Assembly: GCF_018336915.1 (NCBI RefSeq)
Contig: NZ_CP064923.1
Coordinates: 5,460,001-5,492,000, forward strand
Length of the DNA: 32,000 bases
DNA from: Acaryochloris marina S15
GTDB lineage: Bacteria > Cyanobacteriota > Cyanobacteriia > Thermosynechococcales > Thermosynechococcaceae
Direction: 5' to 3'
Shown piece after piece: positions 6,993-26,097 of this stretch. The position numbers and the translations under genes are program-made. How positions within the stretch are numbered: the stretch's first letter is position 1; every line of letters starts with the position of its first letter. The notes below the pieces were generated by a model, which was given only the letters and a program-made list of their open reading frames with translations, ran no database searches and was not told where the DNA came from.

Positions 6993-7580
6993 ATGGATAA
7001 ATTAAGAAGAGTGGCTAAATTGTCGATTGTGGTTGGTGTTGTTTCCCTGTGCCCAGCAATTGTTACTCCTCAAGCAGCCTCTGCAGAGTCTATTTCTCCT
7101 ACGACTGCAGTAGGACAAGCCCCTCAGAATTACGGTATTGTTCGATCGACAGGCCTTAACACTCTTGAAATTAGACATTTGAGTGGTGGCTATCGGACCT
7201 ATTCTGTTTCTAGCGATTTAACGGCTTCTATGGCCCTGAGCCCAGGCGATTTTGTCGCTTACAATGCTGATGCCAGCGGTACGTTAACGCAACTTCAGCC
7301 CCCTAGAATTGCTCGCATCTTTGAAGGGACTATCTCTAACATTCAAGGGAATCAAATTACGGTTGTTGCTCCAGACGGTTCTTCTTTGACCACAACCGTT
7401 GCGGCTAACTCCATTAATCGACTAGAGCTATCTCCTGGAAAGGGCTTAAGTGTGACTCAATACGAGGGCCTGAGCGCTACTAAAGTATGCTGTATTTCTA
7501 AGTTTACGCAACAGCCTCCGGTGCTCCTACCCCCGGAACCCACTGCTGCACCGCCTCAACCCATCCCAGCCTTATGGTAG
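6993..7580 (+). CDS. Exported hypothetical protein (signal peptide, Pro-rich C-terminus)
   Basis: It has an ATG start and an N-terminal signal-like sequence (KLSIVVGVVSLCPAIVTPQAASA/ES). The C-terminus is PPVLLPPEPTAAPPQPIPALW. I recognise no family. Confidence 0.6.
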   Translation: MDKLRRVAKLSIVVGVVSLCPAIVTPQAASAESISPTTAVGQAPQNYGIVRSTGLNTLEIRHLSGGYRTYSVSSDLTASMALSPGDFVAYNADASGTLTQLQPPRIARIFEGTISNIQGNQITVVAPDGSSLTTTVAANSINRLELSPGKGLSVTQYEGLSATKVCCISKFTQQPPVLLPPEPTAAPPQPIPALW

Positions 7581-7683
7581 GCTCACTCCTCCTCAACGCC
7601 TCAAGCAACAGCTGAGGCCTGTCTGTCCATCAAGCTATAGCCCTTCTTCAGATTTACCCTGGGGGAGTAGGGAGTACAAGCAA

Positions 7684-8409: not shown

Positions 8410-8436
8410 CGATTAAGGAAGCTAGCTTTACTCCTT

Positions 8437-8479
8437 AAACAAATAGCGACGGCTTTTGAAAGGCCGTCGCTATTTGTTT
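8437..8479. terminator. Bidirectional intrinsic-terminator-like hairpin between the PEP-CTERM gene and sqdB
   Basis: A perfect 17-bp stem pairs aaacaaatagcgacggc (8437-8453) with gccgtcgctatttgttt (8463-8479) around a 9-nt loop. A/T runs flank both sides. It lies between two convergent stop codons. Confidence 0.75.
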
Positions 8480-8507
8480 CAATTCAGTTAGATAACAGGT
8501 AATCTAT

Positions 8508-9671: not shown

Positions 9672-9933
9672 GCTTTGTCCCTAAACCGAATGTCTCAATT
9701 ACAGACGAGAATTCGAATCTTCAGAATTGCTAGTCAGTCAACGACACACCCTTCCCAGCAATCGTTAGATACGCTACTCGTTTACAACAGCTTCATAGTC
9801 TTTAAGAATATCTCAAATCGGGGACCATCACGATTTGGGGTTGTGACAATGATCAGATCGTATTTTGGTATAGAGCTGGGACAAGATAAGTCCTGAAAAT
9901 GAAGAGGTTCAGCTTCTAGTCGTCACTTCCACT

Positions 9934-11061
9934 TTAGGCTTTAGGCATAACGAAATTAGCATAGCTTAGTTCGTTGACTGCATTCCACTTATAAACCTTT
10001 TCGCGAAAGGCTTTCCAAGGTTCATAGATCTCTTTAAAGCTCGCTTCTTTCGCCGCATTCTCCTCATAGATCTCAAAAGAGATTTTCTGGGCAGCTTGAA
10101 GGATATCGTCACTATAGCGGGTGAGTTCCGTGCCCCCCGCCACCAGCTGAGAGATCACGTCACGATTTAAGGCATCATAGGCGGCCAACATATTGATATT
10201 GGCTTCGTAGGCAGCGGTTTTGAAGATTTCTTGATATTCCTTAGGCAATTTATCCCAAGCTTGGCGATTGACTAGGACATCTAAGGTGGGGCCAGGCTCC
10301 CACCAGCCGGGATAGTAGTAGTATTTTGCTGCTTTTTGCAAGCCGAGTTTCTGATCGTCGTAAGGGCCCACCCATTCAGCGGCATCGATGGTGTTCCGCT
10401 CTAAAGCCAGGAAAATATCCCCCCCTGGTAAGACTTGGACATTTACCCCTAACCGCCGCATCACTTCGCCTCCAAGGCCAGGGATCCGCATTTTGAGTCC
10501 CTTCAGATCGCTAGCCGTTTTGATTTGGCGTTTGAACCAGCCTCCCATTTGGGCTCCGGTGTTACCCGCGGGGAAGTTGATCACACCAAAGTCTGCATAG
10601 ACTTTTTGCATGGCTTCCAGGCCACCGCCATGATAGAGCCAGGCATTTTGTTGCTGAGCGGTAAGACCAAAGGGAACGGCAGTGGCAAAGCCCAGGGCGG
10701 GGTTTTTGCCAATGTAGTAGTAGCTGGCGGTATGGCCGCATTGAACGCTACCGGAGCGGACGGTGTCTAAAACTTCTAAAGGTGGGGCAATTTCGCCACC
10801 GGGTGACACCTGAATTTGAAACCGACCATCGGTCATGGCACTGACGCGATCGCTAATGGTTTTGGCACCACCATAAATGGTGTCTAAGGATTCTTGCCAA
10901 CTGGTGGCCATCCGCCAACGAACTCGGGGAAGGGAACCTGAGCTAGTGGTGGAGGAGCGTCGACAGGCCGCAAGGGTGGTGGTTGCGATCGCACCGACTG
11001 CCGAATTCCGTAATAACTTGCGTCGTTTCAACTTTTCGCTCCTGAACCCTACGTGTATCAT
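9934..11061 (-). CDS. TRAP transporter solute-binding protein (DctP-type, COG4663-like) with a twin-arginine signal
   Basis: Family-typical sequence includes [68 protein letters not shown] and [14 protein letters not shown] place the start at the ATG at 11061 ([33 protein letters not shown], Tat-like RR motif). The ORF track's start at 11121 would add 20 unsupported residues. Confidence 0.85.
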
Positions 11062-11282
11062 CTCGGCAACGGTTATGCAGACGGACTTTAGGGTAATCCG
11101 TAGGGAGATGACCGCCTCCAATCCTACCGATAAATGGATTCGCTACCGGAAAACGCAACAGAATGTTGTCATTCCCGCCCAATTCCACTGATTTTTTAGG
11201 CAGAAGAGTAAATAAAGACTGTCGCTTCATTCCAGACGAAGGGCATTCTAGGGCCATAAATAGACCCATCTCTGTTAGTCAG

Positions 11283-13619
11283 ATGTCGAAAAGTCGACGA
11301 TACCGACCATTTTTACTCTTATTTGCGATTGGCATATTTCTAGGATTCTTAACTGCCACCCATCCTAGGCTGATCGCCAATCCTCACCTGTTCCATGCCC
11401 AAGCCTACTGGACTCCAACCGTCACTCAGACGGTGGATCAAACCTCTTTGGCGGGCACCTGGGAATTTCAAGCTGACCCACAGCCGACCGCTGACAAGCT
11501 AGTGCTGCAACCGAGTGGACCCAATATTCCACCTATTCCCCAGGGCCAATGGCAAGAGATTGCAGTGCCTTCCAACTGGTACTTACAAGGGCAAGATATA
11601 TCGGGGGTGGTCTGGTATCGCCATCAGTTTCGCGCCAATGAGCGATGGCGTCAGAAGCTGACTCGTCTAGTGTTTTCGGGGGTCGATTACACCGCAGACG
11701 TTTGGCTCAATGGTCAGTATTTAGGCTTTCATGAGGGCTACTTTCAGCCCTTTTCCTTTGATGTGTCTAAGGCTCTGATGTTTACGGGCCAGAATGAATT
11801 ACTGGTGCGGGTCAATAGCCCTTTGGAGCCTCAAGGCCAGGATTGGTCCCTCCGCAAACGCTTAATTAAAGGCATTTTTAGTCACCACGATACCCGTCCA
11901 GGTGGAGCTTGGACCGATCGCGGCCAAGAGAAAAATACCGGAGGTATCTGGGCCCCGGTATTTTTGCAAGTCTCCGATCAGGTCGCCATTGAAACGATTC
12001 AAATCACCCCGGAGTTAGACGCCGACTACCAACAGGCCACGGCTAAGGTGGATCTAGTAGTCAATTCTCCAGGACTGGGCAAGACGAATCTTGATGCCCA
12101 TGTGCAGTTGGTGCCAGAGAATTTTTCGGGGTTACCCATTGGACCTATTCGCGTGAAACGCACCCTGCATCAAGGGGCTAATCACCTGAAGCTACAGATT
12201 CCTGTAGATGACCCGAAACTATGGTGGTCTTGGGAGCATGGAGACCCCAATTTATATCGCCTTACGGTGCAGTTGGCCGATGGCAGTCGACTGCTGGATA
12301 AAGCGTCAGATGTATTCGGATTTCGCACCATTCAGTTTGACCCGACCGAAAAAATCTGGCGACTGAATGGTCGCCGCCTATTTTTGCGAGGCACCAATTA
12401 CATTGCCACCCAGTGGCTCAGTGAAATGACGCCGGAGAAATACCAGACGGATATTGACCTGATGAAAGCGGCCAATATCAATACGGTACGAGTCCATGCC
12501 CATATCATCGGCAAGGATTTTTATAAGCTGTGCGATCGCAACGGCGTATTCATCTGGCAGGACTTTCCTTTGCAGTGGGGCTATGAAGATACTCCCCAAT
12601 TTCTCCAGGAAGCTACCCGCCAAGCCAAGGATATGATTGGCTACCTTTACAACCATCCTTCGATTCTGGCCTGGAGTCTGCATAATGAGCCGCCCTGGGA
12701 TGCGGACTGGATGAAGTACAAATACAAGACCTACGATCCAGAGCAAAATCGCGAGTTAGACGCCAAGCTATTGGCCAACCTGCAGGGAGAAGACCCCACC
12801 CGCCTCTTACATCCCGTGTCTACCGTCGGGGAGCATCCTTGGTTTGGTTGGTATTCCAACACCTTCTATAAATATGCAGAACCGACCACAGAAGCCATTA
12901 TTTCCGAATTTGGCGCTCAAGCTTTACCGCATCTAGAGTCCCTACGGCGCATCTTTACGGAAGACGAGCTATGGCCGGATACAGAAGCGGAATGGGACAA
13001 GTGGCTGTATCACAACTTTCAGCGCCATGAAACTTTCAATATTGCCAAGGTGCCCATGGGGAATACGACCCAGGAGTTTATCGATAATACCCAACAGTAT
13101 CAATCCCAACTGATTCAGTTTGCCGCCGAAGCCTATCGCCGCCAGCGTTATCAGCCCGTCTCATCGATTTTTCAATTTATGTTTGTGGAGGATTGGCCTT
13201 CTGTCAATTGGGGCATTGTTGATTACTGGCGACAGCCCAAACCCGGCCATGAGGCTCTGAAATGGGCCTACCAGCCCGTATTGCCTAGTATTGCTTGGCC
13301 TCAACTCACCTGGACTTTGGAGGAAACCGTAGAGCTGGAACTCTGGGCCATCAATGATTTATGGAAGGACTATCCAGAGGCAACCTATACCTATACTCTC
13401 CGCCAAGGCCAAAAACGCCTTAAATCTGGCAAAAGTAGGATTAATTTAACCGCAGATAGCAGCCAGCCTGTCGATAAGATTTTTTTTCAGCCCCAAAACT
13501 TGGGCAACTACACCGTCACAGCCACGATCAAAGATCGGCTAGGGACGGTATTAGGGGAAAACCAGTTTACGTTTGATGTGATTGATCGGGGGGATCAAAC
13601 CAATGAGTCGACGTCGTAA
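11283..13619 (+). CDS. Glycoside hydrolase family 2 protein with an N-terminal membrane anchor
   Basis: The GH2 sugar-binding region is present (VFSGVDYTADVWLNGQYLGFHEGYFQPFSFDVS). So is the TIM-barrel region (FLRGTNYI, NINTVRVHAH, ILAWSLHNEPPW with the NE acid/base motif). The likely start is the ATG at 11283 (MSKSRRYRPFLLLFAIGIFLGFL signal/anchor) rather than 11163. Confidence 0.85.
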   Translation: MSKSRRYRPFLLLFAIGIFLGFLTATHPRLIANPHLFHAQAYWTPTVTQTVDQTSLAGTWEFQADPQPTADKLVLQPSGPNIPPIPQGQWQEIAVPSNWYLQGQDISGVVWYRHQFRANERWRQKLTRLVFSGVDYTADVWLNGQYLGFHEGYFQPFSFDVSKALMFTGQNELLVRVNSPLEPQGQDWSLRKRLIKGIFSHHDTRPGGAWTDRGQEKNTGGIWAPVFLQVSDQVAIETIQITPELDADYQQATAKVDLVVNSPGLGKTNLDAHVQLVPENFSGLPIGPIRVKRTLHQGANHLKLQIPVDDPKLWWSWEHGDPNLYRLTVQLADGSRLLDKASDVFGFRTIQFDPTEKIWRLNGRRLFLRGTNYIATQWLSEMTPEKYQTDIDLMKAANINTVRVHAHIIGKDFYKLCDRNGVFIWQDFPLQWGYEDTPQFLQEATRQAKDMIGYLYNHPSILAWSLHNEPPWDADWMKYKYKTYDPEQNRELDAKLLANLQGEDPTRLLHPVSTVGEHPWFGWYSNTFYKYAEPTTEAIISEFGAQALPHLESLRRIFTEDELWPDTEAEWDKWLYHNFQRHETFNIAKVPMGNTTQEFIDNTQQYQSQLIQFAAEAYRRQRYQPVSSIFQFMFVEDWPSVNWGIVDYWRQPKPGHEALKWAYQPVLPSIAWPQLTWTLEETVELELWAINDLWKDYPEATYTYTLRQGQKRLKSGKSRINLTADSSQPVDKIFFQPQNLGNYTVTATIKDRLGTVLGENQFTFDVIDRGDQTNESTS

Positions 13620-15348
13620 GTTAAGGACGCTATTGATCTGTTTTGTCGCCTCAGTCGCCCTCACGATTGGGATTGCCAAATGGGTCTGTAGCCAGCAGCT
13701 CGCTGAAGACTTTGCACCTAAAATTGTCCTCAACCAAGTTGGATATCGCGCCAATTGGGACAAGGTGGCCTTTTTACTCAATGCGGAAGATAATGCACCT
13801 ATTAAAACAAAGGTCGTTGACCATCAATCTGGGAAAACAGTAGCGACGATCCAGCCTGGGTCTGCTGAATTAGATGAACAGAGTCGCGATCGCATCCAAA
13901 CTCTAGACTTCTCCAAGGTCAAAAGATCCGGTGAATACTACCTGCAAACAGGTGAGTTAAAATCCGTTCCCTTCCAAATTGGCCAAGATATTTATCAAGA
14001 CACCTTTACCAAACTCCTGCGCACCTATTATTTACAGCGTTGCGGCACGGTTATCTTTGACCCTATTACCGGGATTTATCATCCTCCCTGCCATATCAAA
14101 GATGCCTTGTTAGCCCATGATGATGCCTTCCACAAAGCAGGCGACACCGTTCAAAGCCAGGGCGGCTGGCATGATGCAGGAGACTATGGCAAGTATGTGG
14201 CGACCACAACCGTCACCATCGGTAGCTTATTCAGCCTATACGAGCAATATCCCCAGAACTTTACCGACGGCCAGTTAGATATTCCCGAAAGTGGTAACAA
14301 GGTTCCCGATTTACTAGACGAGATGAAAGTGGGTCTAGACTGGCTACTCTCCACTCAACGCCAAGATGGCGGTGTCTATCGCAAGCTCTCAGGTAAAGCC
14401 TGGCCCATTGGCAAAGCGCCCCATGAAGACCAGCAGCCCCGCTATTTATATGGTGTGTCTACGCCTGAAACCGGAAAATTTGCGGCGGTGATGGCCATGG
14501 CAGGTCGGATTTACGAAGAGAGTCAACCCAAACTAGCCCAAACATATCTGGATTCAGCTCGCCTGGCTTGGGACTATTTGCAGACCCAAGACAAAATGCA
14601 AGAGAGCTGGATTGATGGAGATGATAGCGGTTCCGGTAAGTATCTCCAGTCGGAGATTGACATCGAAGACAGTCTGAAAACCGATATTGACGATCGATAC
14701 TGGGCCGCCGCCGAATTATTCCTCACCACCGGAGACTCACAATATGAGCAATATCTGGTGGACCATTTCGACCAGATGCCCTTTAACCTCTATGAGTGGA
14801 AGGATGCCTCAACCCTAGGGATGGTGGATTATTTGCTCTATGCCAAGGCAGACCCCAACCAGCTCAAACCCCAAATCCGCGAAAAGCTCCTCGCCCGTGC
14901 CGATCAAATTATGGAGCGGGTCGAAGGAAGTGGCTATCGCCTCGCCAACCATCGCTTTATTTGGGGTTCCAACAAAATGACCGTCGAAGAAGGCATTACC
15001 TTAATCCATGCCTATCGCCTGACCCAAGACGCAAAATATAAAGCCGCCGCCCTCGATCAGCTCCACTACATGATGGGCCGCAATCATTTTGATCAAACCT
15101 TTGTCACGGATGTGGGCACCCATCCCGTGGAAAATGTGAACCATCTGTTCGCTAGGGCCAAGAAAATTAAAATTCCGGGGTTAGTCGTAGGTGGCCCGAA
15201 TGACGGAGCCCAGGATAATATTGCTCCCAAAGGGTTAGGCATTCGCAGCTATCTCGACAGCGAAAAGTCCTATGCCACCAATGAATATGCCATTGACTAC
15301 AACGCGCCCCTAATAACTCTTTTGGGAATGTTGTTAGAAACGTCTTAG
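13603..15348 (+). CDS. Glycoside hydrolase family 9 endoglucanase-like protein (N-terminal anchor + Ig-like domain + GH9 catalytic domain)
   Basis: GH9 signatures GGWHDAGDYGKY and YATNEYAIDYNAPL are present, along with an (alpha/alpha)6-type core. The likely start is the ATG at 13603 (MSRRRKLRTLLICFVASVAL). That start overlaps the last 17 nt of the GH2 gene. Confidence 0.88.
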   Translation: MSRRRKLRTLLICFVASVALTIGIAKWVCSQQLAEDFAPKIVLNQVGYRANWDKVAFLLNAEDNAPIKTKVVDHQSGKTVATIQPGSAELDEQSRDRIQTLDFSKVKRSGEYYLQTGELKSVPFQIGQDIYQDTFTKLLRTYYLQRCGTVIFDPITGIYHPPCHIKDALLAHDDAFHKAGDTVQSQGGWHDAGDYGKYVATTTVTIGSLFSLYEQYPQNFTDGQLDIPESGNKVPDLLDEMKVGLDWLLSTQRQDGGVYRKLSGKAWPIGKAPHEDQQPRYLYGVSTPETGKFAAVMAMAGRIYEESQPKLAQTYLDSARLAWDYLQTQDKMQESWIDGDDSGSGKYLQSEIDIEDSLKTDIDDRYWAAAELFLTTGDSQYEQYLVDHFDQMPFNLYEWKDASTLGMVDYLLYAKADPNQLKPQIREKLLARADQIMERVEGSGYRLANHRFIWGSNKMTVEEGITLIHAYRLTQDAKYKAAALDQLHYMMGRNHFDQTFVTDVGTHPVENVNHLFARAKKIKIPGLVVGGPNDGAQDNIAPKGLGIRSYLDSEKSYATNEYAIDYNAPLITLLGMLLETS

Positions 15349-15508
15349 CTGACCTCGTTCACCATTCCTTTGCGTGCCGAAGGCGACATTCTGAGTAACA
15401 ATCAACAGCACATAGGGTTCTCCCTTCAGAATTGGGGGCTAGGCTTTGAAGTCAGCTCAGCCGAACGGGACCAAAGGCAGCCAATGAAACCTTCACCCCA
15501 GATCTTCC

Positions 15509-15736
15509 CTAATCCTCTACCTGGATCTCCACCCACTTTTGGCGAGAAGCATGACCTGATTTGATGCTGATGCAAGCTTGGGTCACTCCAAATTCTTGAG
15601 CGAGGTATTGAATCAGCTCAGCATTGGCTTTGCCATCTACCGGAGGAGATTTAAGATGCACGGTCAAACTGCCATCTTCTTCATGGATCAGTCGCTGCTG
15701 TTTAGCATTGGGTTTTACTTTGATCCGCTTTTTCAT
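15509..15736 (-). CDS. DUF167 (YggU/UPF0235) family protein
   Basis: This 75-aa protein carries [23 protein letters not shown]...SGHASRQK, the conserved DUF167 core. Confidence 0.8.
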
Positions 15737-15891
15737 CAGGGGCTGTGAAGCGCCAATTCACCAAATGTTAAGCAGTAGGACATAATTAATTTCACAACAT
15801 TTTTGCTAAAACCCTGGCTTAGCAAGGAAATAGATTGTAATTACTTCTGCTTAAGTGCTTATCTTGAAGCATACTCGAACCCAAAAGTACT

Positions 15892-16497
15892 GTGAATACG
15901 CCTAGCCACGCGATTATCAACCTTGCCCTGCTCATGAATGTGACGGAGCAGCCAGCAGTGTTGGCCGTGACGGCGGGAGCCATTGCCCCGGATCTCCCCA
16001 TGTTTGTGTTTTATTTCTGGGTGAAGGGGATTCGGAAGTTACCAGAAGGCCAAATCTGGACGGAAGCTTACTATCATCCCTTTTGGCAAACCTGCATCGA
16101 TCTATGCCATTCCATTCCATTGGCGGGGCTAGCGGCTTGGGGCTGCTGGCAACTGGGCTGGATGCCTGCGGCCCTATTTTTTCTCAGCATGATTCTCCAC
16201 TCTTTAGGCGATTTGCCCGTTCATAATGACGATGCCCATAAGCATTTTCTACCGCTGAGTCAATATCGACTAATTAGTCCCCTGTCATATTGGGACCCGA
16301 AGCATTACGGTCGGCAAGTGGCGTTTGTAGAGATGCTGCTGGTGTTGGGGACTTCGGTATTGACGTTTCCAATCTTGGGTAATATTTGGGGCCAAGGGTT
16401 GGTGGTGTTGGTGAATGGGTTTTACTGGTTTACCTTTGGCTATACGTTTTTGCGGAGACAGCTTCCTAATTTGTTGTGTCGGGCGCGGAATGCTTGA
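15892..16497 (+). CDS. Integral-membrane, His-rich metal-dependent-hydrolase-like protein (YdjM/DUF4184-like; family uncertain)
   Basis: It has a GTG start, 5-6 hydrophobic spans and His motifs (TPSHAI, LCHSIP, ILHSLGDLPVHNDDAHKH). The family assignment is from pattern memory only. Confidence 0.5.
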   Translation: MNTPSHAIINLALLMNVTEQPAVLAVTAGAIAPDLPMFVFYFWVKGIRKLPEGQIWTEAYYHPFWQTCIDLCHSIPLAGLAAWGCWQLGWMPAALFFLSMILHSLGDLPVHNDDAHKHFLPLSQYRLISPLSYWDPKHYGRQVAFVEMLLVLGTSVLTFPILGNIWGQGLVVLVNGFYWFTFGYTFLRRQLPNLLCRARNA

Positions 16498-16500
16498 AGG

Positions 16501-18861
16501 TTAGGTTTCGTCGAAGGATAGGTTGGCGAAATGTTCTTGCAGGTAGCGATGGACGAAGACATAGCTGCCGCCTGTGCGATAGATAAATACGCAATCTTCG
16601 GCTTGTTGGAAAAAAGTGACGAAATTCCAAGGGATTTGCTTAGTTTGGCAGAGGACTAAACGCATTGACAAGTGTTGAGTACAGGGGTCTATTCCTTCGT
16701 TGTTGAGGATTAAAAAGAGTGGTAACACCATGAATAAGGCAATAATGAATCTCACTACAAATGGTTCTAGGAACAGAGGTAAAATATTTACCAGAGTAAA
16801 ACAAAGAACAATCATAAAAACAAGCGACACGATAACCTGTATCACTATCGTTTTTAAAGATCCCCAAATAACTTGATTAGGAAAAGTTCGATCTAGAATA
16901 TCGACTTTTAGCCCTCCAATCAGCTTGATACTTAGCCCTCCAATCAGCTTGATACTCTCCCCGAGAATCAATCCGAAAATTAGCCCGAGAATCAGGCCTC
17001 CAATCAGCCCGTAACTCTGCATGAAAAGCCCCCCGAAACTCAGCGCGTATGTCAGATAGCTTTCAAGGAGCTTCCAACTTCTTCGTCCCGTTTTGCGAGG
17101 CATTGGATTTTCTATAGCTTTTACTGAATACATCTTATCTCGCCTAACACTCAGCCCGAAAATCAATCCGATTAGCCCGAAAATTAGCCCAGAAATTAGT
17201 CCTCCAATTAGCCCAAAAACCCTTCCAATTAGCCCGAAAATTAGCCCGAGAATTAGCCCCCAAGCCAGCCCATAAAGCAGCCTATAAAGCCATTTAGTCC
17301 TTTCAGCTTCTACTAGATCCATCCCAACATACAGCCCTCCATACAGCCCCATTAGCCCTCCAAATAGCCCTCCGACAATACCTCCAAATAGCTCTCCGAC
17401 AATACCTCCAAATAGCCCGCAAATCAATCCGAAAATCAATCCGAAGATTAGCCCAAGAATCAGCCCAAAAAGCCATTTAGTCCTTGCTGTCTCCAGCCAA
17501 TCTTTGGGTTTCATTCGTTCGATCAAGAACTCTTTCCCCGCTCCCGTTTTCTTCGCTATTCCTTGCAGCCAGTGCAACATTTGTTGCTGTTCCGGCTCAG
17601 GTAAAGACCGCTGGGCAAACATTCGCTCAATATAACGATCAAACAGGAGTTTTAAGCGTTGGTCTTTAGGCAAATCCAGTAATTCCTGAGCTGGACGATT
17701 GCGATAGGCCAAAGTCAGAATCCATAGAAAAAGCGGCTTATTCACTAAGTCCCGTAAGGAGGGATCTGCCCCTAAAGCAGTTGCAATCCCTACTAACGCT
17801 TCCCCTCCCTCTTGTAAGTAATCATCTACCTGCTTTTCTGACAAAGGTTGAATATACACTGCTGCCTGAAACTCTTCTAAACGAGTGATCAAGGCTTGAT
17901 AGTCTACAATTCGGCAACACAGTGCGATTTCGATATTGCCAAACTTTTGCCGAAACTGATTCAATGCTTCCACACAAGCATCGCGATCTTGGGGTTTGAC
18001 TTCATCCAAACCATCCAGCAGCAAGGTCCATTTTTCCTGCTCCAGCCAAGTTTTTCCCACTTCTTTGCGAACTTGATATTGCTGCCATAACTCCTCCAGC
18101 AGCCACTGGGTAAAGGCCAGCGTTCCATCGTTAGGGAACTGCTGAGTGCCCCAAGCTGACAAATTCAACACAATCGGGATAGGCTGTTTTAGCTCTTGAA
18201 AATCAGTCGCTTCTAATAAATCTTGAGCCAGCTCCAAAAGCAAGGTTGTTTTCCCGGCACCCGGCTCCCCCAGCACCAACAACGTTCCGCCACCCCCCAA
18301 ATTAGCAAATCGATCCAACAGCCGCGTGCCAGGGGGCAACACCTGTTTCTCTTCTCCCGCCCTTTGCCACTCCATCCCCACCATCTCAGGCCGCTCTTCC
18401 AATCCCACTGCAATCCGAGCCTGCTCATACAGAGAGTTTTTCAAAACCCCATCAATCCATTTCACCCCCACCTTATCCATCAAGATTTGACGATTGTCTT
18501 GCCACCGGGCTTCATCCAATTCAGATGCTGTCAATATCGAGGGCTTGCGGACAAGCTGCACCACATCCACCACCATCATGCCCAGTAGCCCCACCAGCAC
18601 AACGCTATACAGCAAGCCAATCACTTTGGCAGTTGGGTTATCACTGCTAAAAGCAGCCATTGCCTCTGGAAAGACTCTGCCAATAAACCCCAACACGGCG
18701 GTTTCAACCACCAGCTTCAGCCATCGTCCCCATTTGGCTTTTTTCTGGTCAGCCGCAACTTGCCCCACCACCCAGCCCAACACCACCGGAATCAATACCG
18801 TGAACAGAGGCACCACAACCGTCTGAAAATTCGGATCACTCAGCAGTTTTTGAAGCATCAT
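16501..18861 (-). CDS. Membrane-embedded NACHT-family STAND NTPase with a C-terminal glycine-zipper transmembrane array
   Basis: Three N-terminal hydrophobic spans precede the NACHT core, which has Walker A LLVLGEPGAGKTTLLLELA and Walker B WTLLLDGLDEV. Then comes roughly 290 aa of GLIxGL/GGxxG hydrophobic repeats. The protein ends with FIYRTGGSYVFVHRYLQEHFA, a motif typical of the helical module after a NACHT core. I could not recognise any WD40, TPR or LRR repeats. Confidence 0.85.
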   Translation of the reverse strand: MMLQKLLSDPNFQTVVVPLFTVLIPVVLGWVVGQVAADQKKAKWGRWLKLVVETAVLGFIGRVFPEAMAAFSSDNPTAKVIGLLYSVVLVGLLGMMVVDVVQLVRKPSILTASELDEARWQDNRQILMDKVGVKWIDGVLKNSLYEQARIAVGLEERPEMVGMEWQRAGEEKQVLPPGTRLLDRFANLGGGGTLLVLGEPGAGKTTLLLELAQDLLEATDFQELKQPIPIVLNLSAWGTQQFPNDGTLAFTQWLLEELWQQYQVRKEVGKTWLEQEKWTLLLDGLDEVKPQDRDACVEALNQFRQKFGNIEIALCCRIVDYQALITRLEEFQAAVYIQPLSEKQVDDYLQEGGEALVGIATALGADPSLRDLVNKPLFLWILTLAYRNRPAQELLDLPKDQRLKLLFDRYIERMFAQRSLPEPEQQQMLHWLQGIAKKTGAGKEFLIERMKPKDWLETARTKWLFGLILGLIFGLIFGLICGLFGGIVGELFGGIVGGLFGGLMGLYGGLYVGMDLVEAERTKWLYRLLYGLAWGLILGLIFGLIGRVFGLIGGLISGLIFGLIGLIFGLSVRRDKMYSVKAIENPMPRKTGRRSWKLLESYLTYALSFGGLFMQSYGLIGGLILGLIFGLILGESIKLIGGLSIKLIGGLKVDILDRTFPNQVIWGSLKTIVIQVIVSLVFMIVLCFTLVNILPLFLEPFVVRFIIALFMVLPLFLILNNEGIDPCTQHLSMRLVLCQTKQIPWNFVTFFQQAEDCVFIYRTGGSYVFVHRYLQEHFANLSFDET
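16909..16956 (-). repeat. Perfect in-frame 24-nt tandem duplication inside the NACHT gene
   Basis: tagccctccaatcagcttgatact occurs twice back to back (16909-16932 and 16933-16956) with 24/24 identity. It encodes SIKLIGGL-SIKLIGGL. Confidence 0.95.
17155..17262 (-). repeat. Degenerate 12/9-nt periodic repeat encoding GLIF/GLI glycine-zipper units
   Basis: The plus strand reads agcccgaaaatc aatccgatt agcccgaaaatt agcccagaaatt agtcctccaatt agcccaaaaacc cttccaatt agcccgaaaatt agcccgagaatt. A 17-nt match, aaagccatttagtcctt, at 17286-17302 and 17469-17485 is 183 nt apart. That marks a duplicated 61-codon module beginning (E)RTKWL. Confidence 0.9.
17370..17417 (-). repeat. Second in-frame 24-nt tandem duplication (23/24 identical) inside the NACHT gene
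   Basis: ctccgacaatacctccaaatagcT (17370-17393) is followed by ctccgacaatacctccaaatagcC (17394-17417). Together they encode the GGIVGELF/GGIVGGLF units. Confidence 0.93.
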
Positions 18862-19192
18862 CGATATTTAAGAGAATAAGCAGCTTTAATCGAATATAAA
18901 CGAGAATAAAAGCAAAATCTATATAAAATATCCTTTCCAGCAAGAATTTTGCCGATTTACTCTCATTAAGATAAAGATCGATCTAAGTGCACGATCTTAT
19001 GCCCCATCAAACGTCTGGCCAACATTACCCTTGCCCCCTCCCCAGTACTCCAGATTTACCAACCAAGGTGAGTAGGCCCAAGATACGGGAACCCTAAATA
19101 TAAAGCGATGTAACGTTGGAACTTTTTATTGGTCAGCCAACCTGTTTCGCTCAGGTTCTACCCCATAATTTCCGACTCTATCCCCATCTCGC
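18862..19192. promoter_or_regulatory. Shared divergent promoter region between the NACHT gene and the first kinase/FGE gene
   Basis: This 331-bp AT-rich, ORF-free spacer is flanked by two outward-facing start codons (18861 minus, 19193 plus). No specific operator could be established. Confidence 0.55.
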
Positions 19193-21097
19193 ATGCTCCA
19201 TTGTCTGAACCCCACTTGCAGCAATCCTCAAAACCCAGACGGGCGTGACACCTGTCAACAATGCGGACAGCCCCTGATCGGCATATTGCGCAATCGATAT
19301 CGCATCATCAAACCACTGGGACAAGGTGGATTCGGCATCACTTATCTGGCCGAAGATATCGAGAGATTTAACGAGACTTGCGTGGTTAAACAATTAGCCT
19401 ATCAAAACCCTGATAGCCTCGCATCGCAGCAAAAAGTCCAAGACCTCTTTACCCAAGAAGCCCAACAGCTCTTTCAGCTCGGCACCCATCCACAAATCCC
19501 CAACCTGCTAGCCTACTTTCATGAAACAGGGCATCAATATTTAGTACAAGAATTTATCGAAGGTCCCAATCTTCTGCAAGAGCTGAAAAGCAACGGGGTA
19601 TATAGTGAATCCAAGCTGAGACACTTTCTCCGTAGCATCTTGCCCGTTCTAGACTATATCCATACCCAAGGCGTCATTCATCGCGATCTCAAACCCCACA
19701 ACATCATGTATCGCCCCGCCGATGATCGCTATTTCATCATCGACTTTGGCGTCACCAAGCAAGTCAATACTCAAGACCTCACAGGCACTGTATTAGGCAG
19801 CGAAGGATACGCCGCCTTCGAACAACTCCAATATGGTCAGGCCCATCCCGCGAGTGATTTATATAGTTTGGGGGTGAGCTGTTTTCACTTCTTGACAGGC
19901 CATGATCCAAGATCACTCCAGCTTCAGGTCGGGTATTCATGGACCCAAAACTGGCAGCAACATCTCCCAAAGCCCCTCAGCCCTGAGCTCACCTCAGTTC
20001 TTGACACCCTGCTCCAACTGCAACTAGAGAATCGCTATACCTCTGTTGCAGCAGTGCTCAAAGATTTAGCCCTCACCCAAACTTCTCCCCCCAAAAATCA
20101 AGTCGTGGCTCACAGCCAGCCACCTGCCCATCCACAACCCAAGCTTGAGTTAGCTCCAACCACTGACCGGACCGCCGTTATCTGGGAACCAACGAGCGAT
20201 ATCTCGACTTCATCCGCCTCTGCTGCGTTACACCCACCCTTACAAACCACACAGTTTGAAGTAGTAACCCTCGATGTAAGGGGGCAAACTCATTTGGTTC
20301 AGACCCTTACCGCCCAACAATATCTCGAAGAACTAGGAGACGGCATTTCCCTCTCGATGCTCGTTATCCCGGCCAGAAGTTTCTTCATGGGTTCATCGTC
20401 AACTGAAGTATCAAGACGCAAATTTGAAGGACCTCAACATCAAGTCTCAGTTGCCTCCTTCTACATGGGCCAATTCCTGATCACTCAAGCTCAATGGCAA
20501 GCCATAGCGGCTCTTCCCACCATCAACCATGACCTCTCCCCAGATCCATCGCAGTTCAAAGGAGCCGATCATCCAGTTGAGAGTATTTCCTGGCTAGATG
20601 CTGTCGAATGTTGTGACCGACTCACCCGCAAATTCAATCGACTCTATCGTCTACCCAGTGAAGCAGAGTGGGAATATGCTTGCCGAGCCAACACCACCAC
20701 CCCCTTCCACTGTGGCGAGACCCTCATCTCTGATCATGCTAATTTTCATGGCATGAAAACCTATCGATCCGCCCCTAGAGGTCAGTATCGCAACCAAACC
20801 ACTCCTGTAGGCAGTTTTCAAGCCAATGCTTTTGGCCTCCACGACATGCATGGCAATGTCTGGGAATGGTGCGCCGATGATTGGCATGCCAACTATCAAG
20901 GGGCTCCCATAGATGGCAGCATTTGGTTCACCCCAAACAACGATGCCATCGCAGGCAAGGCTCCCCATCCTTGGAGAGGTGGGTCTTGGTATGATGCCCC
21001 CGACAGCTGTCGGGCTGCCTATCGAACCTTTGCGGATGCCGACTTTAAGAGCAGTAATTTAGGCTTTCGAGTGGTCTCTCCAGTTCTATCCCCCTAA
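19193..21097 (+). CDS. Soluble Ser/Thr protein kinase with an N-terminal 4-Cys zinc ribbon and a C-terminal FGE-sulfatase (SUMF1-like) domain
   Basis: The zinc ribbon is CLNPTCSNPQNPDGRDTCQQCG. Hanks kinase motifs are intact: GQGGFG, VVKQL, HRDLKPHN (codons 163-170) and DFG (codons 184-186). A Pro-rich linker leads to the FGE-sulfatase fold (VIPARSFFMGS, HPVESISW, PSEAEWEYACR, HDMHGNVWEWC, RGGSW, SNLGFRVV). No TM segment is present. Confidence 0.9.
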   Translation: MLHCLNPTCSNPQNPDGRDTCQQCGQPLIGILRNRYRIIKPLGQGGFGITYLAEDIERFNETCVVKQLAYQNPDSLASQQKVQDLFTQEAQQLFQLGTHPQIPNLLAYFHETGHQYLVQEFIEGPNLLQELKSNGVYSESKLRHFLRSILPVLDYIHTQGVIHRDLKPHNIMYRPADDRYFIIDFGVTKQVNTQDLTGTVLGSEGYAAFEQLQYGQAHPASDLYSLGVSCFHFLTGHDPRSLQLQVGYSWTQNWQQHLPKPLSPELTSVLDTLLQLQLENRYTSVAAVLKDLALTQTSPPKNQVVAHSQPPAHPQPKLELAPTTDRTAVIWEPTSDISTSSASAALHPPLQTTQFEVVTLDVRGQTHLVQTLTAQQYLEELGDGISLSMLVIPARSFFMGSSSTEVSRRKFEGPQHQVSVASFYMGQFLITQAQWQAIAALPTINHDLSPDPSQFKGADHPVESISWLDAVECCDRLTRKFNRLYRLPSEAEWEYACRANTTTPFHCGETLISDHANFHGMKTYRSAPRGQYRNQTTPVGSFQANAFGLHDMHGNVWEWCADDWHANYQGAPIDGSIWFTPNNDAIAGKAPHPWRGGSWYDAPDSCRAAYRTFADADFKSSNLGFRVVSPVLSP

Positions 21098-21400
21098 AAA
21101 CCGAATTTGCTCAAGTTTTTTGCAGGGAAAAAGTCGATCGAGCAACCGTTATTAACACTAGTTCGATGGGTTTATGCCAATACTCACTATCAATACAGTA
21201 AGGTATTAGTAACAGAAATAGGGGGGGTAATTGAGTTCTGTGAGTGCCTCAATTTCTCTAGCAGACTAATGCTTCAAAACATGGTAGCTTCAATATTTCA
21301 AGTGTCTATTGGATAACACGATCAAAGTAGTACTTGAGCAATAAGCTATGTCAGTGTGCTGAGTGATTCTTTTCGATTGATTCCTATGAATATCTAAGCA

Positions 21401-23278
21401 ATGGTTTGTTGTCTCAATCCCAAGTGTGAGAAACCCCTCAACCCAGACACCAGTAAGTTTTGTCAACAGTGTGGTACAAAACTAACCCTGTTACGGCGAC
21501 GGTTTAAGATGGTTCGTCTGTTGGGTAAAGGTATGTTTGGCCATACGTATCTTGCAGAAGATCGAGATAATTTGCAGGAGCCCTGCATTGTCAAACAGCT
21601 AATTTGTCAAGCCCAGGGAACGGATGCCAGCCAGACGGTTGTTGAACCATTTTTACAAGAGGCAGAACAACTCAGACGGCTGAAAAAAAACCAACATATT
21701 CCCAGCATTTTAGCTTACTTCGAAGAAAATTATATTCCCTATTTAGTCCAGGAATATATCGACGGCCAAGACTTGCAACAAGTCATTGAGAATCAGGGTG
21801 CCTTCAGCGAGAATCAAGTCCGGGCCTTGTTACTAGAGCTCTTGCCGGTCTTACAGACGATCCATGATCAAGGGGTGATTCATCGGGACTTGAAACCCGC
21901 TCACATCATGCGTCAGCATTCAGATAGCAAGCTGATTCTGGTGGGGTTTTGTGTCTCCAAGCAACTCAGTTTATCTCAGTTACAGCAAACCGATAGCGTT
22001 CGAGAGAATACCAGCTACGCACCACCAGAAGTCTTTGCCGTCGATAAAGCTCGTCCCGGCAGCGATCTCTATAGCCTAGGTGCCACCTGCGTCCATTTAT
22101 TAACGGGAGTTGCTCCCCATGCTTTACCCATCCAAGGTGGAGAAGTATGGGTCGAACACTGGCAACAGCATCTTCCCCAGCCCTTGAGTGCTGAATTAAA
22201 GCCTGTGCTGGAGAAGTTACTCCGCACAGACCTAGCGGAGCGATATACTTCCGCCTTAGAAGTGCTCAGAGAAGTGCGCGGTTTTGCCAAAGCAACCTCC
22301 CGCCCCCTGCCCAAAATACCCGCCGTTCGAGCAGCCCAGACCTCTGGTCAGACAGCCCCACAAGCAGTCAGATCTCAGCCCAAGGCCCCGGCCCAGCCCA
22401 CCAAACTGCAGCCTAAACCCAAATCTTCCATCCCTTCCTTCCAAGCGGAAGTCGCCCAGGTCGATACCAAAGGCCAAGTGGTGAGTCGCCAATTTCATCC
22501 GATTGGCCACATCACCGAGGATCTCGGTAAGGATGTCACCCTGGAGTTGGCGCAGATTCCGGCAGGCCGCTTTTCCATGGGCTCGCCCCCTAGCGAGCAG
22601 CATCGGCAGCAGACCGAAAGTCCCCAGCATATTGTGTCTATCCCAGAATTTTATTTAAGTCGCTATCCCATCACTCAGGTCCAATGGCGTTTGGTGGCCG
22701 CCTTACCCGCAGTCAAGCGCGAACTGGATGATTCTCCGTCTCACTTTACGGGCGATGATCGCCCTGTCGAAAGCGTCTCTTGGTTTGATGTGGTCGAATT
22801 CTGTAACCGACTCTCCTTGTTAACTGGGAAGGACTATCACCTCCCTAGTGAATCTGCTTGGGAATATTCCTGCCGCGCCGCTAGTAACACCCCCTTTGCC
22901 TTTGGCGAAACCCTCAACACAGAACTGGCCAACTATGATGGCACAGCAGCCTATGGAGCTGGACCGACAGGCAATTTTCGCCAGCAAACCACCCGAGTGG
23001 GCAAATTCCCGGCCAATCCCTATGGGTTATCCGATATGCATGGCAATGTCTGGGAATGGTGTGCAGACCATTGGCATGGCAACTATGGCAATGCCCCAGT
23101 AGACGGCAGCGTCTGGCAAGATCAATACTTCTTTGCCTGTGTACTGAGGGGAGGGGCCTGGAATACCCAAGCCGCGAGCTGTCGTTCCGCCTCTCGCATT
23201 TGGGAAGCGGCCTCTGAACAAAGCAATCATATTGGGTTTCGGGTTGCTTGTACCTTAGTGAAACCAGCCAGCTCATAA
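21401..23278 (+). CDS. Paralogous zinc-ribbon / kinase-like / FGE-sulfatase protein; kinase domain predicted catalytically degenerate
   Basis: It has the same architecture as the upstream gene: CLNPKCEKPLNPDTSKFCQQCG, GKGMFG, IVKQL, and an FGE fold with IPAGRFSMGS, RPVESVSW, PSESAWEYSCR, SDMHGNVWEWC, RGGAW and NHIGFRVA. However, the catalytic loop reads HRDLKPAH, so Asn is replaced by His at codon 168. The DFG motif reads GFC at codons 182-184. Confidence 0.88.
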   Translation: MVCCLNPKCEKPLNPDTSKFCQQCGTKLTLLRRRFKMVRLLGKGMFGHTYLAEDRDNLQEPCIVKQLICQAQGTDASQTVVEPFLQEAEQLRRLKKNQHIPSILAYFEENYIPYLVQEYIDGQDLQQVIENQGAFSENQVRALLLELLPVLQTIHDQGVIHRDLKPAHIMRQHSDSKLILVGFCVSKQLSLSQLQQTDSVRENTSYAPPEVFAVDKARPGSDLYSLGATCVHLLTGVAPHALPIQGGEVWVEHWQQHLPQPLSAELKPVLEKLLRTDLAERYTSALEVLREVRGFAKATSRPLPKIPAVRAAQTSGQTAPQAVRSQPKAPAQPTKLQPKPKSSIPSFQAEVAQVDTKGQVVSRQFHPIGHITEDLGKDVTLELAQIPAGRFSMGSPPSEQHRQQTESPQHIVSIPEFYLSRYPITQVQWRLVAALPAVKRELDDSPSHFTGDDRPVESVSWFDVVEFCNRLSLLTGKDYHLPSESAWEYSCRAASNTPFAFGETLNTELANYDGTAAYGAGPTGNFRQQTTRVGKFPANPYGLSDMHGNVWEWCADHWHGNYGNAPVDGSVWQDQYFFACVLRGGAWNTQAASCRSASRIWEAASEQSNHIGFRVACTLVKPASS

Positions 23279-23355
23279 GCGCTTCAAGTCAGAGGGCAAA
23301 AAAACCGCAATAATAATGTGAATGCTCATTTTCATAAGGTGCAACATCCTGCCGG

Positions 23356-26097
23356 ATGGAAGTTCTCTCCGTTACGCTGAAAAACTTTAAGGCCCATCGC
23401 GATCGCTACTATGAATTCCGACCGGGGGCCAATGCCATTTGTGGTGAAAATGGGTCAGGGAAGACCAGCATCCTAGAAGCCATTGCCTGGGTTTTATTTG
23501 ATCACAGCGAGTACAAGCGAGCCGAACTAATCACCGTCGGGGCCAAAAGTGCCCAAGCCATCGTCAGCTTTATATCCCACTTGGATGGGCGAATCTACGA
23601 GGTGCGTCGCTGTACTAGTCGGGGCTATGAGGTTCACGACCCCCAGCTCAACCGCAAGCTAGAACTGAAAAAACTCGATGATGTCCGCTGCTGGCTCTGT
23701 GAACATTTGGGGGTGGGGGTCCACACGGAACTGGCCAAATTGTTTGCAGAAACCATTGGCATTCCCCAGGGCACCTTTACAGTGGATTTTCTCAAATCAG
23801 CGGGCGATCGCAAAAAGGTATTCGATCCCATTCTGAAGGTGGAAGAGTATAAACAGGCTTACGATCAGGCCCAAAAATTAACCAGTTATGCCCAGGCCCA
23901 GGTCCAACAGCTAGAGCAAAAATTACAAAGCTACGACCAGCAACTCGAAGGCTGGGAAGCGCTTAAGCAACAGAAGCTAGAGCTAGCTAAAACCTTGACT
24001 CAGCAGATGGCCCAGATGCAAACCCTGGCTCAGCAGTTGGGTGAGATTCGGACTGAACTCAAGGATTTAAAGACCCAAGACCAAGCCATCCAAACCCTAG
24101 ACAAACAGGTCCAGCATCTCCAAACCCAATGGACCAGTAAACAGGAAATTCTCCAGCTCTTAGAGGAGAATTGGCAGCAGGCAGACCAAGCCGTCCAGAT
24201 TTGTCGTCAGCATCGGCCTCAATTTCAGGCCTATCAAGCGGCCCAAGAGACCCTCAAGGCCCTCGCTCAACAACAAAAACAACGACAGCAACTGCTGCAA
24301 GAACGCGATCGCATCCAAAATACCCTCCGCGATCAGCAAGTCCTACTCTCCCAAAACCAAGGCCAACTCTCCACCTTTGCCAAGATGGACGCAGAACTCC
24401 AGGACTGGCAAACCAAAGTTCCGCAACAACAGCAGCTCGACCAAGAAAAGACCACTTGCCAACAGGCCCTCCAAACCCTAGTCTCCGACCAAAAACACCT
24501 ACAGCGACTGCAAGAGCAAATCCACAAACAGCAGCAGAGTTGGGAAACCCTCAGCCAGACCATTCGCCAACTGGTCGCCCTAGAACCACAAGTTCAGGCC
24601 ATTCCTAACTTCGAAGCCCAGCAGCAGAAGATTCAAGAACGGCTGGGACGAATTGCCGCCGCCCAGCAATTTGCCACAGAATTACAGACATTACTGACCG
24701 AGGCTGAACCCCAACAACAGCACTATCAGCAGCAAGTAGACACAGCGAAAGATCTGCTCAGTCGTTCCACCCTGAACCCAGCCCAGACCACTCAACTCGC
24801 CACCATTTTGGACCAAGGGGCTGCCCTCACCCACCAGATTATTCAGCAGCTCCAAACAGCTTTTGCCGACATTATTGATCCCCAGACCGTCACCAACCTC
24901 AAGCAACAGCTTCGGCAGATAAAAACCCAACTCAAAGCCGCCCAAAAAGCCCAAACCCAATGGTTGATGCTAGAGGCCCAACAGCATCAGCTAACGGAGC
25001 TAGAGCAAGGGATGACGTCACTGCAGCAAGAGTGCGATCGCATCCAGGTCACCCTCAACCAAGAGCCCCAGCTCCAGAGCCAACTAGCACAGCTCAATAC
25101 CCAGCTAACGGCACTCAGCGACCCCCAGGGCCATGTCCGCATCTTGCAGCAGCAGCTTCAAGGAGCCACCCAGCTAGAAGCAGAGATCACTCGCCTTCAA
25201 CAGGCCTGTCAAGGTCATCAGCAGTCCCTCACAACCTTTGAAACCCAGGTCGAAGCCTTGGGAGATCTAGAAGCCCAAGTCGATGCCCAACAGCAGATCC
25301 AGCAAGAGCATCAGGAGGTGTATCAGCGCTATTTACGCCATCGGAATCAGGCCAATACCTTTAAAGACCTAGATCAGCAACGCCAAGGTGCGATCGCTAC
25401 CCAAACCCAACTCCAAACCCAGTTAACGGGTGCTCAAGCCCAATGGCAGGAAAAGCTCAAAGATCATAATCCTGAGCGGCTAGCTGAAGTGAGTCACACC
25501 TATGAACAATTGCAGCGACACCATGACCAGCTCCAGGGGGGACTAGCCCCCCAACAGGCTCAGCTGCAATATCTCGATCAGCAATTGGAAGCCAAGCAAG
25601 CCCTCGCCCAAGAGCGCGATCAGATCTGGGTGACCTTAGAGGATAAGCGCCAAATCTCACAGTTCGTTATCGATGCTCGCAACGTCTACAAGCAAAGCGG
25701 TCCTCGAATCACCAAATTTTACCTGACAGAAATTTCTTGGGAGGCGGATCGGCTCTATCGGGAGCTGCTCGATCGGCCTGATGTGGCTTTACAGTGGACT
25801 GAAGATTACGAAATTCAGGTACAAGAGCAGGGCCATTGGCGTAGCTTCAAAAGCCTGTCGGGGGGAGAGCAGATGTGTGCTGCTTTAGCCGTGCGCCTAG
25901 CCTTGCTGAAAGTCTTAGTCGATATCAATATTGCGTTTTTCGACGAGCCCACAACGAACATGGATGAACTGCGTCGTCGACAGTTGGCCGAAGCCTTGGG
26001 GCATCTCAAATCCTTCCATCAGCTGTTTGTGATCAGTCATGACGACACTTTTGAGAGCGTTACAGAAAATATTATTCGGGTAGAGAGAGCGAGTTAA
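23356..26097 (+). CDS. Rad50/SbcC-like SMC-family ABC ATPase with a very long Gln-rich coiled coil
   Basis: The N-terminal head is LKNFKAHRD...ICGENGSGKTSILEAI (Walker A), followed by about 600 aa of Q-rich heptad-like sequence. The C-terminal head has SLSGGEQMCAALAVRLAL (signature), IAFFDEPTTNMD (Walker B/D-loop) and FVISHDD (H-loop). There is no CxxC in the coiled-coil region and no nuclease gene next to it. Confidence 0.85.
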   Translation: MEVLSVTLKNFKAHRDRYYEFRPGANAICGENGSGKTSILEAIAWVLFDHSEYKRAELITVGAKSAQAIVSFISHLDGRIYEVRRCTSRGYEVHDPQLNRKLELKKLDDVRCWLCEHLGVGVHTELAKLFAETIGIPQGTFTVDFLKSAGDRKKVFDPILKVEEYKQAYDQAQKLTSYAQAQVQQLEQKLQSYDQQLEGWEALKQQKLELAKTLTQQMAQMQTLAQQLGEIRTELKDLKTQDQAIQTLDKQVQHLQTQWTSKQEILQLLEENWQQADQAVQICRQHRPQFQAYQAAQETLKALAQQQKQRQQLLQERDRIQNTLRDQQVLLSQNQGQLSTFAKMDAELQDWQTKVPQQQQLDQEKTTCQQALQTLVSDQKHLQRLQEQIHKQQQSWETLSQTIRQLVALEPQVQAIPNFEAQQQKIQERLGRIAAAQQFATELQTLLTEAEPQQQHYQQQVDTAKDLLSRSTLNPAQTTQLATILDQGAALTHQIIQQLQTAFADIIDPQTVTNLKQQLRQIKTQLKAAQKAQTQWLMLEAQQHQLTELEQGMTSLQQECDRIQVTLNQEPQLQSQLAQLNTQLTALSDPQGHVRILQQQLQGATQLEAEITRLQQACQGHQQSLTTFETQVEALGDLEAQVDAQQQIQQEHQEVYQRYLRHRNQANTFKDLDQQRQGAIATQTQLQTQLTGAQAQWQEKLKDHNPERLAEVSHTYEQLQRHHDQLQGGLAPQQAQLQYLDQQLEAKQALAQERDQIWVTLEDKRQISQFVIDARNVYKQSGPRITKFYLTEISWEADRLYRELLDRPDVALQWTEDYEIQVQEQGHWRSFKSLSGGEQMCAALAVRLALLKVLVDINIAFFDEPTTNMDELRRRQLAEALGHLKSFHQLFVISHDDTFESVTENIIRVERAS

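Follow-up and report, generated by a model that had tools for sequence, protein, structure and literature searches.

The octamer GCGATCGC, known as HIP1, has been described in cyanobacterial genomes as over-represented, conserved and clumped (Robinson 1995; Elhai 2015, PMC4390886; Xu et al. 2018, PMC5861425). Synechococcus elongatus carries 7,402 sites in 2.7 Mb, or about 2.7 per kb (PMC3025956), whereas Acaryochloris marina MBIC11017, with 285 sites per Mb, has been classed as 'weak HIP1' (Elhai 2015, PMC4390886). In S. elongatus PCC 7942, HIP1 scarcity has been used together with codon usage, G+C content and phylogeny to flag xenologs, with the caveat that genes may lack HIP1 for other reasons (Delaye et al. 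2011, PMC3025956). Here we analyse a HIP1-free stretch of 9.5 kb (positions 13894 to 23398) in a 32-kb segment of the genome of A. marina S15, the whole of which is called the window below. An earlier note on this DNA had reasoned much as Delaye et al. did, for whom long genes with too few HIP1 sites are possible recent arrivals, and had offered, as one reading, that the gap is more recently acquired or faster-evolving accessory DNA. We find instead that the stretch is probably an ordinary inherited fluctuation in the distribution of HIP1, a motif that is sparse and clumped on the Acaryochloris chromosome.

Results

Searching the window for exact HIP1 sites gave 15, compared with 0.34 expected from dinucleotide-preserving shuffles; this over-representation of about 44-fold was reached by none of 100 shuffles. 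In the left part the sites start at 405, 1693, 3086, 10846, 10985, 12532 and 13886, in the right part at 23399, 23804, 24305, 25034, 25390, 27448, 28113 and 31086, and they form three clusters with centres near 2, 12 and 26 kb. The search found zero sites starting from 13887 to 23398, so that the 9.5-kb gap is bounded by the sites at 13886 and 23399, and zero starting from 3087 to 10845. The latter interval makes up a second HIP1-free stretch of 7.75 kb (3094 to 10845), which comprises the rest of a GT2 gene, a Wzc-like gene, a gene for a 195-amino-acid protein, a PEP-CTERM gene, sqdB and the 3' end of a DctP gene. All 15 positions and both empty stretches listed in the earlier note were reproduced by this search, as were the five sites that it placed in the SbcC/Rad50-like coiled-coil ATPase gene adjoining the gap on the right (23356 to 26097, plus strand). 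The Acaryochloris-typical extension TGCGATCGCA is present at 7 of the 15 sites, as against the 56% reported by Elhai (PMC4390886). HIP1 variants with one mismatch, also counted, numbered 4 in the gap and 9 in the other 22.5 kb; they are thus no scarcer in the gap, lie near chance overall, and were set aside as uninformative.

We then compared the length of the gap with chance expectation. The local density is 469 sites per Mb, a value raised by the five-site ATPase gene. Given 15 sites in 32 kb, the largest of the 16 intervals measures at least 9.5 kb with P=0.08; the figure of e^-4.5 proposed earlier is correct for one interval at local density. At the density of 285 sites per Mb, the probability that an interval reaches at least 9.5 kb is 0.066, about 158 such gaps are expected in a genome of 8.36 Mb, and about 25% of that genome is expected to lie inside them. 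A 32-kb window would contain such a gap in 45% of cases at 285 sites per Mb, in 36% at 320 and in 13% at 469. These expectations are derived from a pure Poisson model on the stated densities. Given the over-dispersion and quasi-periodicity known for HIP1 (Xu et al. 2018, PMC5861425), they should be taken as lower bounds. A HIP1 gap of 9.5 kb is unremarkable for Acaryochloris.

The genes of the gap were labelled by Pfam and NCBIfam profile searches. The first is a GH9 glycoside hydrolase gene (13582 to 15348, plus strand; PF00759, E=4.7e-80), which holds the left flanking HIP1 site and is empty over its other 1.45 kb. It is followed by a small DUF167 (YggU-like) gene (15509 to 15736, minus strand; TIGR00251, E=1e-25), a gene for a 201-amino-acid membrane protein (15892 to 16497, plus strand) and a gene for a NACHT NTPase with a C-terminal repetitive membrane region of the GLIFGLI type (16501 to 18861, minus strand; PF05729, E=2.7e-10). 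Two genes that each combine a Ser/Thr kinase with an FGE-sulfatase domain (PF00069 and PF03781) complete the series, STK-FGE1 (19193 to 21097, plus strand) and STK-FGE2 (21401 to 23278, plus strand). The gap genes of 1.9 to 2.4 kb have no HIP1 site at all. Most gene labels of the earlier note were upheld (GH9, DUF167, NACHT, kinase/FGE, GT2, Wzc-like, PEP-CTERM and sqdB), with the exception of 'hydrolase-like', which had been given to the 201-amino-acid protein; nothing rose above threshold for this protein in Pfam or NCBIfam.

Relatives of the locus were collected in three ways. A search with the GH9 protein led to A. marina MBIC11017 (NC_009925) and to two Acaryochloris metagenome-assembled genomes (MAGs), with about 90% amino-acid identity. 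Exact-protein look-ups with Ycf3 and SqdB added 18 Acaryochloris contigs of 95-100% nucleotide identity, including the chromosome CP071717.1 (Acaryochloris sp. 'Moss Beach'), and a 76%-identical STK-FGE1 orthologue used as a look-up query gave the Acaryochloris record AFEJ02000001.1, which we take to be strain CCMEE 5410. Collinearity of the gap block holds in all the Acaryochloris assemblies found, about 25 in number, down to about 85% nucleotide identity in MBIC11017 and CCMEE 5410. Collinearity extends over positions 5018 to 25738 of the window in MBIC11017, with 76-87% identity, and over positions 6260 to 31072 in CCMEE 5410.

The HIP1 map is conserved along with the gene order. Every HIP1 site at this locus in MBIC11017 (8 sites) and in CCMEE 5410 (10 sites) stands at a position occupied in the window; the shared sites are 10846, 10985, 12532 and 13886, then, after the gap, 23399, 23804, 24305 and 25034, and also 27448 and 28113. 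The two flanking sites with the empty interval between them are present in MBIC11017, in CCMEE 5410 and in about 20 closer strains, and none of the approximately 25 Acaryochloris assemblies has a HIP1 site inside the gap. In the second stretch (3094 to 10845), too, there was no HIP1 in MBIC11017 or CCMEE 5410 over the aligned parts. The only variable pieces of the block are the NACHT gene, missing from CCMEE 5410, STK-FGE1, missing from one MAG, and the DUF167 gene, which is confined to the clade of the window; the DUF167 segment (15364 to 15891) is without counterpart in CCMEE 5410 and is cut to about 170 nt in MBIC11017. With both the NACHT and the DUF167 segments missing, the empty interval of CCMEE 5410 measures 6,577 nt.

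Both of these genomes are about 15% diverged. Of the window sites covered by the alignments, MBIC11017 retains 8 out of 9 and CCMEE 5410 retains 10 out of 11, compared with 27-28% of control octamers of 75% G+C (HIP1 excess, P=2e-4 and P=2e-5, respectively). Conservation of HIP1 above background has already been published (Xu et al. 2018, PMC5861425) and is reproduced here at one locus. Individual gains and losses are nevertheless detectable within Acaryochloris. Assemblies L005 and L011 lack site 24305, and L020 lacks site 13886. The ATPase gene has kept four of its five sites in both MBIC11017 and CCMEE 5410, the exception being site 25390: positions 25390 to 25397 read GCAATGGC in MBIC11017 and GCCATGGC in CCMEE 5410, and the site is also missing from L004 and L009. 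Site 25390 is a recent lineage-specific gain, made by two in-place substitutions, and is the sole gain seen. Since gains are rare, an empty ancestral stretch is expected to remain empty.

Conservation of both sites and gaps across the genus is also what one would expect if the spacing of HIP1 had a function. Significant periodicity has been reported in many HIP1-rich genomes, with periods of 10-90 kb that have been proposed to bear on how the chromosome or nucleoid is organised (Xu et al. 2018, PMC5861425), and a selected quasi-periodic distribution of this kind could be seen in the three clusters of the window. However, 32 kb is too short for a period of 10-90 kb, and conservation of the gap follows automatically from site conservation and a low rate of gain. 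Moreover, loss of the NACHT gene in CCMEE 5410 shifted the spacing from 9.5 to 6.6 kb with no compensation. Functional spacing is therefore a very improbable explanation of the gap.

Another reading is that the region from 15.4 to 23.3 kb is an island, acquired horizontally and recently, which entered the host genome once HIP1 sites had already built up there. In its favour are only the lack of HIP1 as such and the accessory flavour of the NACHT and kinase genes. Against it, besides the collinearity of the block in all relatives, stands the synonymous divergence (dS) from MBIC11017, which was 0.42-0.91 inside the gap and 0.35-0.79 in the flanking genes; it is equal in the two, and all genes therefore have the same divergence time. 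The composition of the gap is typical as well. Its G+C content (0.44-0.52) is similar to that of the flanks, its tetranucleotide usage correlates with that of the rest of the window with r=0.90, and its dinucleotide delta* was not elevated. The pooled codon bias of the gap genes relative to the rest was B=0.145, random four-gene sets giving 0.173 +/- 0.036. As for the borders of an island, a search for tRNA genes gave none, the open reading frames (ORFs) at the block included no integrase, transposase or insertion sequence (IS) ORF, and no repeats, direct repeats included, were found to bound it. Finally, among the best 120 of the 5,891 homologues that STK-FGE1 had at E<=1e-30, all those with a name were cyanobacterial; in this search, made with STK-FGE1 only, the kinase/FGE family appears native to cyanobacteria.

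Synteny, equal dS, typical composition and lack of island borders thus contradict the idea that this DNA is more recently acquired, and we hold recent horizontal acquisition to be exceedingly improbable. A block that is syntenic and compositionally typical in the relatives is also the outcome that the earlier note had itself named as speaking against its proposal. The method of Delaye et al. likewise calls for unusual codon usage, G+C content or phylogeny in addition to scarcity of sites, whereas the gap genes are normal and vertically inherited. With respect to the 'HIP1-less putative alien' of these authors, the gap genes display the scarcity of sites and do not display the codon deviation, our codon test having been made without a ribosomal-protein reference set.

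The gap is not uniform in its rate of change. Sliding-window identity has a trough at 16-21 kb, with 73-81% against A. marina strains (flanks 84-92%) and 77-90% among close strains (flanks 96-100%). The NACHT protein has 61% amino-acid identity with that of MBIC11017 and a dN/dS of 0.37. Its length is 681, 726 or 786 amino acids according to the strain, the gene is split in one assembly (L018), and internal repeats of 24 and 90 nt at 16908 to 17485 encode the GLIFGLI-type membrane segments. In CCMEE 5410, about 33 nt stand in place of positions 16555 to 19082 and the gene is cleanly gone. The NACHT gene is a variation hotspot among Acaryochloris strains that are otherwise 96-100% identical; several short-read contigs terminate within it. 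STK-FGE1 has 78% amino-acid identity with its MBIC11017 counterpart (dN/dS 0.15) and is missing from the MAG L002 (Acaryochloris sp. IP29b_bin.137), in which NACHT and STK-FGE2 are kept. In contrast, GH9 (91% identity, dN/dS 0.065), the 201-amino-acid protein (97%, 0.045) and STK-FGE2 (93%, 0.07) have dN/dS values of 0.045-0.07, comparable to those of GH2, DctP and the ATPase. Roughly one half of the gap is thus variable and accessory-like, and the other is as stable as its surroundings. The description as faster-evolving accessory DNA therefore suits the central 16-21 kb, with NACHT and STK-FGE1, but not GH9, the 201-amino-acid gene and STK-FGE2, which are conserved like the flanks.

Three adjoining genes gave matches to PADLOC models that belong to a single system, namely mad8 for NACHT (weak), mad6 for the kinase and mad3 for the ATPase. 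The PD-T4-6, mad6 and LmuB matches span generic kinase or SMC-type ATPase domains only, the curated NCBIfam defence models all remained far under their cut-offs (EruA, 29 vs 1000 bits; MADS6, 122 vs 460), and there is no methyltransferase gene in the window, the orphan GATC and CGATCG methyltransferases that are cognate to HIP1 included. We therefore do not place NACHT, the kinases or the ATPase in a defence system, the matches being to generic domains and below cut-offs.

A further explanation is an effect of gene class: NACHT and kinase/FGE genes may belong to expanded, fast-turnover, accessory-type families that gain or keep fewer HIP1 sites than housekeeping genes do. The gap would then mark an old accessory signalling or defence-like module. 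Several observations weigh against a simple fluctuation, and all but the second of them also count in favour of such an effect. The gap overlaps the part of the locus that has diverged most (16-21 kb) and the NACHT gene, which is hypervariable and prone to insertions and deletions. The two large gaps taken jointly have P=0.002 under a uniform model at local density, that is, HIP1 in the window is somewhat clumped beyond Poisson. Four 50-kb samples of the A. marina MBIC11017 plasmids pREB1-3 contained 33 HIP1 sites, a mean of 165 per Mb (range 100-240), with largest HIP1-free gaps of 12-25 kb (up to 24.6 kb); chromosomal samples have 370-585 per Mb, so that plasmids carry two to three times fewer sites. 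Lastly, HIP1 was counted in ten STK-FGE genes, the two of the window among them, which belong to Acaryochloris, Microcoleus, Dolichospermum, Oscillatoria princeps and two other assemblies. The count was 1, compared with 7.4 predicted from the flanks (P=0.005); if the window pair is set aside, it is 1 compared with 5.5 (P ~0.03). Delaye et al. 2011 (PMC3025956) applied the same logic to S. elongatus. Together, the divergent segment, the plasmid deficit and the STK-FGE deficit suggest a real gene-class effect on top of chance.

Other data do not fit this explanation. The half of the gap made up of GH9, the 201-amino-acid gene and STK-FGE2 is as conserved as the flanks, and the codon usage of the gap genes is typical. 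HIP1 is equally lacking from sqdB and ycf3, which are core genes, and from the Wzc-like gene; the sqdB case had been added to the earlier note as a caveat, correctly, and we judge it to be the more important point. In the three STK-FGE loci picked after the idea had formed, the deficit was not significant (1 site, 2.6 expected). When metagenomes were scanned with a kinase/FGE alignment, the matches rested on generic kinase motifs and were mostly non-cyanobacterial kinases; among the five cyanobacterial kinase-domain loci that were usable, the related kinase domains lying in HIP1-rich contigs carry 1-2 sites each. All in all, we consider a gene-class effect as the cause of the gap rather unlikely, and the same holds for the old accessory module that it would imply. 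The stronger proposal that HIP1 is systematically excluded from, or fails to accumulate in, the kinase/FGE family and the neighbouring NACHT genes across genera is improbable. If true, however, it would mean that HIP1 density reports a functional partition, in which stable 'self' DNA is marked for recombination or repair and diversifying sensor and defence loci are left unmarked, and that the conserved gap is maintained rather than accidental. HIP1 depletion of kinase/FGE genes is at present a lead rather than a result.

We next considered HIP1 within reading frames. All genic sites of the window are read as Ala-Ile-Ala or as (Ser/Cys/Arg/Gly)-Asp-Arg, the third frame being used by none. The HIP1-bearing stretches contain 18 such tripeptides as compared to 4.5 expected from composition, and 14 of the 18 carry HIP1; the remaining four match the chance background. 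In the 9.5-kb gap there are four compatible tripeptides (1.5 expected), none with HIP1, and in the 7.75-kb stretch there is no tripeptide of either type. HIP1 sites thus form an extra class: they are put in anew instead of being made from contexts already there, they shape the protein, and the gap has received none. The contrast in usage (0/4 in the gap vs 14/18 outside, Fisher P=0.0096) was tried as a proof that the gap is special and was rejected because shuffles place the unused contexts at chance level both inside and outside the gap.

Unused contexts could also result from selection against HIP1 in these genes, through expression level or through constraints on RNA or peptide, an idea put forward for rRNA and ribosomal-protein genes. 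HIP1 has been noted to be lacking from highly expressed genes (Delaye et al. 2011, PMC3025956), and STK-FGE1 has three compatible tripeptides that are unused in every strain. On the other hand, NACHT and kinase genes are presumably not highly expressed, their codon usage is average and not biased, and the unused contexts occur at chance frequency, in the flanks as well. We give almost no credence to this possibility.

The remainder of the window was labelled by profile matches as well. At the left end is the C-terminus of an SMC gene (to 2558), and GT2, the Wzc-like gene, the PEP-CTERM protein, sqdB, a DctP-type binding protein and GH2 follow before GH9; a CAAX protease, ycf3 and an EamA transporter were also recognized. 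The segment 6001 to 7500 has a low G+C content (38-39% vs ~49%) and takes in the start of the 195-amino-acid gene as well as the intergenic DNA that lies upstream of the Wzc-like gene. The PEP-CTERM protein, downstream of this segment, has a long (Thr-Pro)n run. In MBIC11017 the Wzc-like gene has an insertion of about 1.08 kb (342 to 1424 of locus L003, against window position ~5019), which encodes a transposase-like protein of 334 amino acids, putatively IS630-like from the look of its sequence; the window copy is intact. Among close strains (L014, L016 and L018), dS over GH2 and GH9 (11000 to 16000) was 0.05-0.27 depending on the strain, and the left genes of L014, from SMC to DctP, differ from the window with a dS of 0-0.055. 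This mosaic divergence suggests recombination tracts within the population.

Discussion

We propose that the HIP1-free stretch arose in the following way. HIP1 sites in Acaryochloris are few, about 0.3-0.5 per kb, and rarely created, each in place by point substitution, and once established they are strongly conserved. With gains rare and sites conserved, the layout of sites and gaps is very slow to change. The last ancestor shared by the window lineage, MBIC11017 and CCMEE 5410 already carried HIP1 where 13886 and 23399 now stand, with no site in between, and none of its descendants has added one there. About 3 kb of lineage-variable DNA, the NACHT and DUF167 segments, accounts for the stretching of the gap from about 6.5 to 9.5 kb. 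Rapid evolution of NACHT and STK-FGE1, or their accessory status, may contribute to the local lack of sites by further cutting the odds that HIP1 is fixed or retained there.

In over-representation, conservation and clumping, the window behaves like the published HIP1 distribution (Robinson 1995; Elhai 2015, PMC4390886; Xu et al. 2018, PMC5861425). There is no essential difference; its 469 sites per Mb are somewhat above the genome mean of 285. A gap of 9.5 kb would be extraordinary in S. elongatus, with about 2.7 sites per kb, but is not so in Acaryochloris, where the density of about 0.3 per kb is some ten times lower. The patchiness of HIP1, the conservation of its sites and the use of its scarcity as a marker of horizontal gene transfer are all already published, and nothing at this locus is outside known HIP1 behaviour.

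DNA uptake sequences (DUS/USS) in Neisseria and Haemophilus are biased to core and genome-maintenance genes. By way of analogy only, HIP1 recalls them in two respects. It is an over-represented short motif that is rarer in accessory DNA, if the plasmid and chromosomal densities given above are compared, and the two HIP1-richest genes of the window, SMC (1 to 2558) and the SbcC/Rad50-like gene (23356 to 26097), both encode SMC-type genome-maintenance ATPases. The richness of these two genes may be a mere effect of coiled-coil amino-acid composition. Unlike DUS/USS, HIP1 is without an established uptake function; a 2024 preprint has linked it to transformation efficiency in Synechococcus PCC 7002.

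For HIP1-sparse cyanobacteria such as Acaryochloris, a 10-kb stretch free of HIP1 says almost nothing about the origin of the genes it contains, because such gaps are expected by chance and because rare creation and strong conservation of the sites make the pattern a long-inherited one. Scarcity of HIP1 can serve as a marker of horizontal gene transfer only in HIP1-dense genomes, and there only in combination with composition and synteny. One lead is of wider interest, namely that kinase/FGE genes may be poor in HIP1 as a whole family, and with it the lower HIP1 density of plasmids.

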